Origin: Amphiscolops sp. MND2022
Lineage: Eukaryota
DNA length: 64,000 bases
Assembly: GCA_964187785.1 (NCBI GenBank)
Contig: OZ076409.1
Span: 68,202,001-68,266,000 of the forward strand
Direction of reading: 5' to 3'
The notes under the pieces are model-generated. The model did not search any database. It saw only the letters and a program-made list of their open reading frames with translations, and had not been told where the DNA came from. The position numbers and the translations under genes were made by a program. This document shows, piece by piece, positions 59,129-63,200 of the stretch (the stretch's first letter is position 1; every line of letters starts with the position of its first letter).

Positions 59129-60271
59129 ATGCCGTCCGATAGAATCTTGAGATCGCAAGTAAACCAAACTTCAGAGAAGTCCGGAAGCGATATAGTAGCC
59201 GAATCACCGCCACCGTCATCGAAAAGCAGCCTAGCTATGGCGGGCTTAAACTTGGATGAATTAGCTGCAGCCATACTGCCGTCTCTGAATCAGAGTGTTC
59301 AAGAAGCAGTTGTTAACAATGTGTCAGATCAATTTACGAAAGTATATGAATGCATTGAAAATAATCTTGGGAAGATCAACAGGCAACTCACATTGATCGG
59401 AGAACGCCATGAATCGATACAGTCCGAACTCACAACAATCTCGGAATCGATATGCAGCCTCAAGACTAATCAAAGTCTCATCAATGAAAAGGTTTCCCAT
59501 CTTGAAGAAAATGTTAACCGTAGTGTCCAAAAAGTTGCGCGAGTTGAAACATGTGTCGAAAACCTGATCTTGGCAAAGGACCGGACAGAAGAAAGCATTA
59601 GAAGCATTACAGAGGCGAACGAAAAACTCCCGATTGAACTGGAGGCGATGAAGTGTCGAGATATCGCAGAAAAGGTCCAAGAGACTGTAGACAGTATCCT
59701 GAAAGAAAAAAGGGCCTCCGACCCTGGCCCTATCAGTCCCTCTGCTGCAACGAACGTGGATTCTGAAACGTGCCTCCTGACAGAATGTAAATTGGAAAAC
59801 ATTGAACAGTACAACAGGAGAGACTGTCTACTCTTTTTTGGTTTGGTGGAATGCGAGGGCGAAAACTGTACTGATAAAATCGTAGAAACCGCACATGCTA
59901 TGGGAGTGCCTATCACACATTCTGATGTATCGATAAGCCATCGTCTATTCACGAGGAATAGGAGACCTGGCGAACCGAGGGCAGTAATCGCCAAGTTCAC
60001 CAGAAGAGATACTAAAAATGCAATTTACCAATTGAAACATCGCCTAAAACACTCTGATAATCATTACAATGTCTATGTCAGGGAGCAACTTACAAAGGAG
60101 AGGGCGAGGGCATTGTTCTGGTTAAAAGAAGAAGGTTACGAAGTGACAACATATGAATGTCGACTGCTGTATAAAAAAGGATCGTCTAATGGTGTCATAA
60201 ATTCTCTAGATGAACTGATTACGAGAATTGGATGGGATAGCGGCAAGCTGAAAAAAGCTTTCAACAAATAG
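59129..60271 (+). CDS. LINE ORF1p (coiled coil + RRM-like/L1 transposase_22-type domain)
   Basis: Heptad-rich region, then LENIEQYNRRDCLLFFGL.E, ISHRL, PRAVIAKF, VYVREQLT..R. Confidence 0.85.
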   Translation: MPSDRILRSQVNQTSEKSGSDIVAESPPPSSKSSLAMAGLNLDELAAAILPSLNQSVQEAVVNNVSDQFTKVYECIENNLGKINRQLTLIGERHESIQSELTTISESICSLKTNQSLINEKVSHLEENVNRSVQKVARVETCVENLILAKDRTEESIRSITEANEKLPIELEAMKCRDIAEKVQETVDSILKEKRASDPGPISPSAATNVDSETCLLTECKLENIEQYNRRDCLLFFGLVECEGENCTDKIVETAHAMGVPITHSDVSISHRLFTRNRRPGEPRAVIAKFTRRDTKNAIYQLKHRLKHSDNHYNVYVREQLTKERARALFWLKEEGYEVTTYECRLLYKKGSSNGVINSLDELITRIGWDSGKLKKAFNK

Positions 60272-63200
60272 CAATCAAACTTGAAAAAAAACGTGGCCCC
60301 CACCCGAAGTGAACAATATAAACTTGTGCTTTTAAATGTTCGAGGCATTAAAAGCAAACTTAAGCTGAATGAAATCTACAATGTAGTAACTGAACATGAT
60401 GTAATTGGGTTAACAGAAACGCTGTCAAACGCTTTTGATTTTGAGAATCTAAAAACTCATGAAGTTTTCAGTGGAAGTGATAAATTAAATCTCAAAGGTT
60501 TTAGGGGGCTTGCCCTTGTTGTACGGAAGTCGTTAAAATACAAATTTTCGGAAACTGATCTAGGGCTTTGGGTCCATGTTGAAGTAGGAGGATACAACTT
60601 TTCGATTGGGCTGTATTATGCGCCTTGCGAGGGATCAAAACACTGGGATGTAAACTTCTTCGACGAGATCCAAGCAGACGTACTACATTACAAGTGTCAG
60701 GACCGTAATGTGATTATAATGGGAGACTTTAATGGGCGTACTGGAGAAAACGATGATTACATAGAAATTGAAGATGAATTAAATGATATGATTCATAGGA
60801 GTAACTGTGACAAGCTAGTAAATACTAATGGACGCCTATTGTTGGATATGTGCAAAACTACTGAAATGAGTATTGTTAACGGAAGGGTAGGGGATGACAA
60901 GGGGATTGGTGCTTTCACTTGTCACACTCATAATGGTAGGAGCCTTATTGACTACTTCCTTATCAACAGCTCGGCCTTAAGCCTAATTGACAATATCACA
61001 GTCTGGCCATTTGACCCTTGTCTCGAAAAGCATACCGCTCCAATGAAGGAATGTGTCTCTAAAAGAATTAGAAAATGGAACGATGAAATGAAAAGCAGCT
61101 ACAAATGTGATCCATACTTCAATGAAATGACGGACATTGATGCACTCCTGGAATCTGAATTGAATACCCTTCAAGCCCTGAACGAAACAAATTCCTTATT
61201 AGTGAATGTCATAAAAAAATCAGCCCTGAATTGTGGCGCACTACGTTATGTTTCGGGCCAAACTAAAGCAAAGTATAGTTCGTGGTTTGATAGGGACTGT
61301 AAACTCCAGCGGTCAATTTATCGGAGAAAACTACGAAATGCTTTGAGGCGAAATGACCAAGACAGTAGGAGATCCGCATTTCGTGAATACAAGCGTTTCT
61401 TGCAGAAAAAAAAGGTCTGCAATGTCTGCAAAAACTAACGGTTTTTTGCGGAACATGAAGTCTAGTGATCCTAAGGGCTATTGGTCTTTGCTGAAAAGTT
61501 TTACTAAGAGCGATGTAAACATACCGATTGATAAGACAACTGTCTTCCAACATTTCAAAAACCTCAGTAGTGCCTCGAACTCTAATATAGTTGAAAGTCA
61601 TTATAATGTTGCTGAAATGAATGTGACTATTAATAAAAGTTTTAGTGTTGATGAAATTTGTTGCTGTTTAAAAAAAATAAAGAATGGAAAGTCAGCTGGT
61701 CATGATGATATCTTTCCGGAGTTTCTTAAGTATGCACCTGAGAAACTTGTTGTGGTGATTACGAAGTTCTTTAATGCAATTCTTGATAGAGGGGAAGTGC
61801 CCGATGATTGGGCACTTTCAGTGTACTGCCCAGTCTATAAAAAAGGTGATAGAAAAGACATAAATAACTACAGAGGAATACCTCTTGCAAATTGTCTGTG
61901 TAAATTGTTTACCTCTCTTCTAGCGGAAAGAATGCAGAAAGACCTAGAGAGCAGACGAGTGTTAGGAATAGAACAAGCAGGTTTTAGGGAAAGTATGGGG
62001 TGCACTGATCACGCTTTTGTCCTTTATACTATAGTATCATTCTACTTAGCCCAAAGAAAAAGGCTGTTTGTCACATTCATTGACTATGAGAAAGCGTTCG
62101 ATCGCGTTGATCATAATTTACTCTGGATGAAGTTGGCTTCATGTACGATTAATGGTAAAGTCCTGTCGGTCATAAAGAACCTTTATGAAAAAACAAAAGC
62201 GTGTGTAAACGTTAATGGGTCTCTTACCGATGTTTTTGAATGTCGAATAGGAGTAAGGCAAGGTGATAATCTATCACCTCTACTCTTCATTGTGTTTTTG
62301 AATGACTTCCAAACCTTCGTGTCGTCGAAGTTCACTGGCCTGCAACCAGATGTTTTAGCCCAAAATGTACAATGTTTTTTGAAGCTTTTTGTGCTTCTGT
62401 ATGCGGATGATACACTGCTGTTAACCGAAACAGAGAGTGACATGCAGAGAGCAGTTGATGCGACCTTGCTATACTGCAAGCAAAACAGAATGAATATAAA
62501 TATTGATAAAACAAAGTATATGATTTTTTCTAGGGGTAAAGTACGAAAAACCGTTCCCATACTTGCTGAAGGTAAAGCACTTGAGCGTGTTGACACATTC
62601 TGCTACTTGGGAATCGTCTTTCGGTATAACAATACGTTTCAAGCTGCCATGAAATATAACATCGATAAAGCAAAAAAAGCATTGTTCAAAATGGAAACCC
62701 TGCTTGGTAAAGTTGATCTAGAAATTGAGACGAAGCTACATCTTTTTGATACGATGGTTCTACCGATCTTGATCTATGGGTGCGAGGTTTGGGGTTTTGA
62801 AGAAATTGAGCAAATTGAAGTTTTCCATAGGAATTTTTTGCGGCGTGTTTTACGTGTACGGAAAAGTGTCCCAAAAGGTATGATATATGGTGAACTAGGA
62901 CGTCAAGAACTTAAATTTATTATCTGGCAAAGAATGGCTAACTTCTGGAAGAAAATCAATGTGCAACATAATTCATTTTCAAGTATAACGTTCCAATGGA
63001 TGAATAAAAATGTCCAGATAACAGCATGGCACCAAAGAATAAGGCAAATTTTGATTAACTGTGGTATACCATTTGCCGAGATGTATGCAGGCTATATCGC
63101 TGATGCAGAATTCAAAAAGTATGTGAAAGACAGATGCAATGAACTTGCATTTCAATCGTGGCAAGGTATGATACATAATAACTCGCTCTGTGACAACTAC

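Follow-up and report, generated by a model that had tools for sequence, protein, structure and literature searches.

The subject of this study is a retrotransposon in a 64,000-nucleotide stretch of the genome of Amphiscolops sp. MND2022 (GenBank assembly GCA_964187785.1, contig OZ076409.1, positions 68,202,001 to 68,266,000 of the forward strand; hereafter the window, with positions counted from its first letter). The element is an APE-type long interspersed nuclear element (LINE) with two main open reading frames (ORFs), as seen from its endonuclease followed by a reverse transcriptase (RT), its ORF1, its target-site duplication and its repeat tail. Comparison with related elements indicates that its ORF2 is probably expressed by programmed readthrough of the UAG stop codon of ORF1, which would yield the ORF1 protein (ORF1p) together with a fusion of ORF1, endonuclease (EN) and RT. 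An earlier note on this DNA had proposed such a fusion, and the comparative evidence assembled here supports it.

A single stop codon separates ORF1, which begins with an ATG at 59129, from the endonuclease frame at 60272-61438, and the two share one reading frame. As the earlier note had read it, the stop is a TAG at 60269-60271 followed in the endonuclease frame by CAA TCA AAC TTG. The junction AAA TAG CAA TCA (60266..60277, + strand) thus places the ORF1 stop in the context UAG CAR YYA, the type I (tobamovirus) readthrough signal (PMC3542737). The hexamer CARYYA follows just 7 of the 7004 stop triplets on both strands of the window, which makes a chance occurrence of the motif rare, and it follows 2 of the 1467 TAG triplets, the ORF1 junction being one of these two. 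ORF2 also lacks an early in-frame ATG, the first being found at 60719, codon 150, within the sequence IIMGDFN. The overlapping stop-start UAAUG of SART1-type coupling is absent from the window junction sequence, the window element shows neither of two traits of the L1 clade (an AUG of its own for ORF2 after a spacer, and a poly(A) tail), and the 2A motif D(V/I)ExNPGP was not seen before the endonuclease when seven linkers were compared by eye. No downstream RNA structure is predicted at the window junction (z -1.1) or at that of the close relative L001; weak folding downstream of the stop (z about -2) is predicted for just two loci, L002 and L004.

An in-frame stop of this kind might also be a nonsense mutation peculiar to one copy of a single-ORF element, or might be read as sense by the host; the copy in the window is decayed, and five relatives carry a sense codon at the stop position. 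The stop is shared by other copies, however. Among 70 ORF1 homologues, compared as protein records rather than DNA, 33 belonging to several subfamilies end at the same residue, 12 residues from a conserved Trp, while five run on in frame, three have frameshifted tails, one ends earlier, 13 are distant and have longer tails, and 15 lack the anchor. Within the ORF1 cluster of the window element itself, six of the ten members reach the C-terminus, and all six end in KKAFNK. The sense residues of the five run-on copies differ among themselves and are one-base neighbours of TAG. This common stop position largely refutes a nonsense mutation in the window copy. No full ORF1-ORF2 fusion was found among 16 longer endonuclease proteins (777-1183 aa), although this is weak evidence. 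With respect to TAG as a sense codon, no TAG occurs in 1482 codons of the element (46 of them Gln) or in 1421 host codons (61 Gln), the latter being a weak test because the host frames were picked as stop-free, and TAG terminates ORF2 in 4 of 23 elements from a genome record described below (G001). The probability of either form of this explanation is therefore negligible.

The five run-on copies also carry information on the bases that follow the stop. The residue at the stop position and the two that follow are Y-QS in P0009, L-QS in P0147, W-QS in P0152, E-QS in P0185 and L-QL in P0217; TAG is the only stop codon one base away from codons for all of Y, L, W and E. CARYYA can encode only the peptides QS, QL and QP, and when the window element and L001 are added to the five run-on copies, Gln occupies +1 in all seven junctions and Ser or Leu occupies +2 in all seven, against a background frequency of 0.0072 for Gln followed by Ser, Leu or Pro. 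The lineages of these seven junctions are 31-59% identical in the C-terminal part of ORF1, and the linker from +3 to +10 shows 0-19% pairwise identity. The check that the earlier note had asked for, whether TAG-CARYYA is kept in related copies, gave a favorable result among close relatives, with the Gln-Ser/Leu pair retained in a linker that is otherwise unconserved. The junction nucleotides themselves are fixed in three lineages only; in one subfamily, represented by P0009 with an in-frame tail and P0226 with a frameshifted tail, TAG CAA TCA is the only sequence that fits if a stop is required. Nor does an ATG appear soon after the stop, since the four run-on copies that reach the endonuclease have no Met up to that domain. 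Both of the sequence outcomes that the earlier note had set as refuting its reading thus went in its favor. The starts called in ORF2 protein records vary, sister copies having Leu or Val at the aligned positions, and P0002 and P0003 rule out an ATG at the position of a GTG codon in the window ORF2.

L001 is the only close relative for which DNA is available, and its endonuclease is 46% identical to that of the window element. Its junction, CAG TAG CAA CTA, lies at the end of ORF1 and contains a second form of CAR-YYA. The ORF1 tail of L001 is 14 residues longer than that of the window element and is directly followed by the motif, which therefore tracks the stop and not a position in the protein. 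A locus scan with the endonuclease alignment found one locus in metagenome contigs; genome contigs and viral contigs yielded no locus, and scans of viral contigs with the ORF2 alignment found none either.

The in-frame UAG extends well beyond these relatives. A scan of prokaryote genomes yielded LINE contigs of host (animal) origin carried in metagenome-assembled genomes (MAGs); such eukaryote contigs are abundant in the bacterial MAGs G001 and G005-G008, where they represent host contamination. In G001, a record titled as a Sedimenticola MAG, 150 of 352 candidates were scored as matches. The clade set comprised 50 loci (L015-L064), of which 30 were the best matches and 20 were additional ones that cover the start of the endonuclease, and the control consisted of 40 of about 100 weaker matches, 34 of them readable and with endonuclease starts called more roughly. 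A junction was considered in frame if one stop separated the endonuclease from an upstream ORF, 150 codons or longer, in the same frame. Forty-three of the 50 clade loci were in frame across one stop, the stop was TAG in 43 of 43, and no Met preceded the first strand of the endonuclease in 39 of the 43. L036 is a 44th in-frame TAG locus, which brings the total to 44 of 47 readable G001 elements, a count that leaves out L038, L041 and L050, whose 5' ends are cut off. In contrast, only 2 of the 34 control LINEs from the same DNA were in frame, both with a Met. Five further genome records, one of which bears a title naming a symbiont of the snail Alviniconcha, showed an in-frame TAG in 10 of 14 readable clade loci, and G002-G004 contained other LINE groups or fragments only. 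Loci were set aside because of a parser error (L088), the lack of a readable junction (L066, L068, L074, L084 and L104) or a position at a contig end (L134, L139, L234 and L239), and the junction counts leave out L005-L014 and most of L105-L230. In a tree of the RT domain (FastTree, midpoint root, six short RT rows dropped), the window family nests with 11 of the in-frame-TAG G001 elements in a group of 22 rows (Shimodaira-Hasegawa-like [SH-like] support 99), which sits inside a 56-row clade (SH-like 95). Other arrangements were also seen. The endonuclease is separated from the in-frame TAG by long inserts (104-550 codons) in L027, L057, L238 and L144; L069 and L078, two LINEs that belong to other groups, show an in-frame TAG followed by a Met; and in L074 a long open frame precedes the endonuclease.

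The 43 G001 junctions share several base preferences: the -1 base is A in 30, the +4 base is G in 37, as in the UAG-G context of type III readthrough, and positions +13, +14 and +15 are G in 30, 29 and 31, respectively, the third codon position included. These preferences bear on the possibility that the stop supplies the AG of a splice acceptor (TAG|G or TAG|C) and that ORF2 is translated from a spliced RNA lacking the stop. Splice acceptors favor a G after the AG, and the G at +4 in 37 of 43 junctions matches this consensus. However, the pyrimidine tract is lacking (pyrimidine fraction 0.42 before the AG compared to 0.45 within ORF1, and 0.375 in the window), TAG is used in 43 of 43 junctions and CAG in none, the triplet is always located at the ORF1 stop, and CAR-YYA would be left unexplained; splicing is consequently very unlikely. 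Somewhat less likely again is adenosine-to-inosine editing, which would convert UAG to UIG (Trp) and open the frame in some transcripts. Editing would account for the stop always being UAG, but the surroundings of the UAG are not predicted to form a stable duplex in either the window (z -0.06) or L001 (z 1.2), no mean folding signal is found in 70-nt windows beside the 43 G001 junctions, and CAR-YYA would again have no explanation.

There are several observations that weigh against readthrough. CARYYA occurs at none of the 43 G001 junctions, so that its conservation across families, a check named in the earlier note, holds for the window lineage but not for the wider clade, which keeps the in-frame UAG in another context. 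Local folding shows no shift in mean z-score at these junctions (70-nt windows), and type III contexts generally need RNA structure (PMC13517186). In addition, the G001 counts reflect a trait that has been kept and not independent events, because the elements are related. Seven readable clade members are arranged otherwise (L020, L043, L062, L237, L240, L241 and L153), the first three, from G001, having a Met and a different layout. The run-on copies are known as protein records in which codons are not visible, P0152 ends short of the endonuclease, and the called starts of P0098/P0116 and of P0080 could be ATG codons. ORF2 of L001 is one base out of frame, past a run of seven A, and starts at an ATG located 39 nt downstream of the stop. 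P0081 has this start as well; both are also broken at another A-run, and L001 may be either a slipped copy or a genuinely ATG-started element. Finally, the case of Tca2 demonstrates that a stop between ORFs in one frame is not necessarily read through when placed in a reporter (PMC2194720).

The ATG of L001 would also suit termination followed by reinitiation, in which a separate ORF2 protein (ORF2p) would be produced from a nearby non-AUG codon, as proposed for LINE-1. The ORF2 of human L1 can do without its AUG, and the window ORF2 offers an in-frame TTG (codon 4) and GTG (codon 8) before the endonuclease, the latter in a strong context (A at -3 and G at +4). LINE-1 and SART1 employ termination-reinitiation (PMC5972666), and it has been argued that the functions of ORF1 need separation from ORF2 (PMC3708506). 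However, reinitiation requires neither a common frame, nor UAG in 43 of 43 junctions, nor CAR-YYA. In 22 of the 43 G001 junctions, ATG, CTG, GTG, TTG and ACG are all absent before the first strand, in 7 there is no one-mismatch start codon whatever, and in 12 the stop lies no more than 9 codons before a conserved Asn. Reinitiation is thus considered unlikely, and readthrough is favored because one cause accounts for the shared frame, the fixed UAG, the lack of an early ATG and CAR-YYA.

Under readthrough, most ribosomes would stop at the UAG to give abundant ORF1p, and a near-cognate tRNA would occasionally decode it to give a minor ORF1-endonuclease-RT fusion. CAR-YYA is the likely stimulator in the window lineage, given that UAG CAR YYA needs no downstream structure to be active in plants, mammals and yeast (PMC13517186). 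In the wider clade, the UAG-G context together with the G-rich positions +13 to +15 may serve the same purpose; this G-rich triplet, with A at -1, may constitute an undescribed readthrough signal. The in-frame UAG would then be the older state, and the window lineage would have switched the type of signal. The fusion would set the ratio of ORF1p to ORF2p and could enter ORF1p trimers through its own coiled coil. Extended to its widest form, the proposal would describe an old clade of animal LINEs that make their enzyme only as an amber-readthrough fusion, a LINE equivalent of retroviral Gag-Pol without a protease, mostly by means of a hitherto undescribed signal (A-UAG-G, plus GGG at +13 to +15) that acts without RNA structure and was swapped for CAR-YYA in the window lineage; judged from sequence comparison, the prospects of this broader proposal are about even.

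The element spans 58148-63639, lies on the + strand as do all its parts, and is flanked by identical ATAAT target-site duplications (58143..58147 and 63640..63644). It begins with tandem repeats with a unit of about 20 bp (58144..58243), and short tandem repeats also open L001. Upstream of ORF1 and inside the target-site duplications lies ORF0 (58427..59038; 203 aa from an ATG, ending in the stop TAA GTA), which shares its frame with both ORF1 and ORF2. L001 has no ORF0, no match to ORF0 was found in family, structure or Atlas searches, and its single-sequence model (mean predicted local distance difference test [pLDDT] score 35) is too poor for a fold search. By eye, the motifs of ORF0 may be those of a worn SGNH esterase. 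An element with both an esterase and an RNA recognition motif (RRM) would be unusual, since the esterase ORF1ps in Repbase never carried an RRM (PMC3905857). ORF1 (59129..60271; 380 aa) has a LINE-1 ORF1p-like arrangement of a coiled coil, an RRM and a C-terminal domain; its model has a pLDDT of 85.7, and the top ten Foldseek matches are all human LINE-1 ORF1p (best E 7e-8). Based on this predicted LINE-1 ORF1p fold, ORF1 is the nucleic-acid-binding protein type of an APE-type two-ORF LINE. The first part of ORF2 (60272..61414), in the ORF1 frame, consists of a linker of 17-20 codons and the APE endonuclease, and Pfam Exo_endo_phos matches the frame 60272-61438 with an E-value of 2.5e-12. The second part, after a frameshift (61404..63596), contains the RT (Pfam RVT_1, E 1.2e-32) and a C-terminal Cys/His motif and ends in a TAA stop; PDB matches of ORF2 are L1 ORF2p and R2. 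The 3' tail consists of (AAT)n and (CTT)n without poly(A) (63611..63639). Compared to its relative P0056, the window copy has a 14-codon deletion near 61020, with loss of the conserved SDVH motif, and a frameshift at an A-run near 61404-61414; because of these two lesions, this copy is dead.

The element was inserted into a non-coding repeat (58002-58132 and 63642-63678), an uninterrupted relative of which lies at 40726-40898 on the - strand, with the empty site related to the insertion at about 40760-40770 on that strand. Genes of the eukaryotic host are spliced, as the SYF1 exons show. Host genes in the window include exons of a SYF1-type splicing factor (41464-48255), a methyltransferase (7852-8877) and a PLAC8-family ORF (56880-57371). 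A 3.8-kb tandem duplication (99.9% identity) and large inverted duplications (96-99%) occupy 17707-25246 and 23853-38213 and surround an ORF with a MATH domain (29896-30762); these duplications may be real or may be an effect of assembly.

How ORF2 is translated from the RNA of a two-gene LINE is an old open question with few worked cases (L1 and SART1). In the literature searched, which excluded subscription papers and Repbase/Dfam, neither a LINE with CAR-YYA nor an in-frame UAG kept across a clade was found to be described. The available portions of PMC5009743, PMC10275272, PMC4176336, PMC2861651 and PMC4559204 contain no case of LINE readthrough, and the sole proposal encountered in the literature searched is that for Group 3 of the Paramecium non-LTR (non-long terminal repeat) retrotransposons, for which readthrough of the ORF1 stop was suggested from consensus sequences (Guerin et al. 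2017, PMC5405496); the phenomenon proposed here is therefore of a kind already known. With dozens of families that carry an in-frame UAG, and a lineage whose portable six-base signal has known behavior, readthrough is directly testable in a simple reporter. If the proposal is correct, ORF2p would be covalently bound to an ORF1p monomer, a link that could explain in a simple way both how the ratio is controlled and why cis preference occurs. In addition, a natural type I signal would exist outside plant viruses, the clade would provide numerous natural versions of a UAG-G signal that is possibly new, and gene finders would be expected to mis-call ORF2 starts throughout this LINE clade.

The closest counterpart of the window junction is the tobamovirus type I signal, with the same nonanucleotide, an A before the UAG as in tobacco mosaic virus, and a polymerase in frame downstream (PMC3542737, PMC13517186), and the UAG CAA CUA of L001 is the form listed for Providence virus. 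In contrast to the tobamovirus case, the putative signal here is located in a genomic non-LTR retrotransposon. Paramecium Group 3 is described as a ciliate-specific clade for which the available text gives no stop identity, signal or assay (PMC5405496); compared by description, the present elements differ in having UAG with CAR-YYA or UAG-G, in many families and in other eukaryotes. Human LINE-1 and Bombyx SART1 are likewise APE-type LINEs with two ORFs, and the ORF1p of the window element shares the LINE-1 fold (PMC5972666, PMC3708506). However, the ORF2 of L1 follows a 63-nt spacer and has an AUG, and SART1 has a UAAUG overlap; neither arrangement occurs in the window LINE. The tail of the window LINE is a triplet repeat and not poly(A) as in L1.

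The window LINE may belong to the RTEX (RTE-X) group. RTEX elements have two ORFs, APE and RT domains, a C-terminal Cys/His motif and a repeat tail, and are abundant in invertebrate DNA (PMC3905857, PMC11203168); no RTEX match was found in the supplement of PMC11203168. Among LTR elements, a protease frees the enzymes; no protease was found in the window LINE, and the LINE fusion would consequently stay whole. One such LTR element, SIRE1, uses CARYYA. SIRE1, Tca2, VdLTRE5, Tj1 and gammaretrovirus gag-pol all have structural and enzyme ORFs split by one stop, with readthrough setting the ratio of the products (PMC2194720, PMC3441728, PMC5911963), and the type III UAG-G context resembles the junction of the wider LINE clade.

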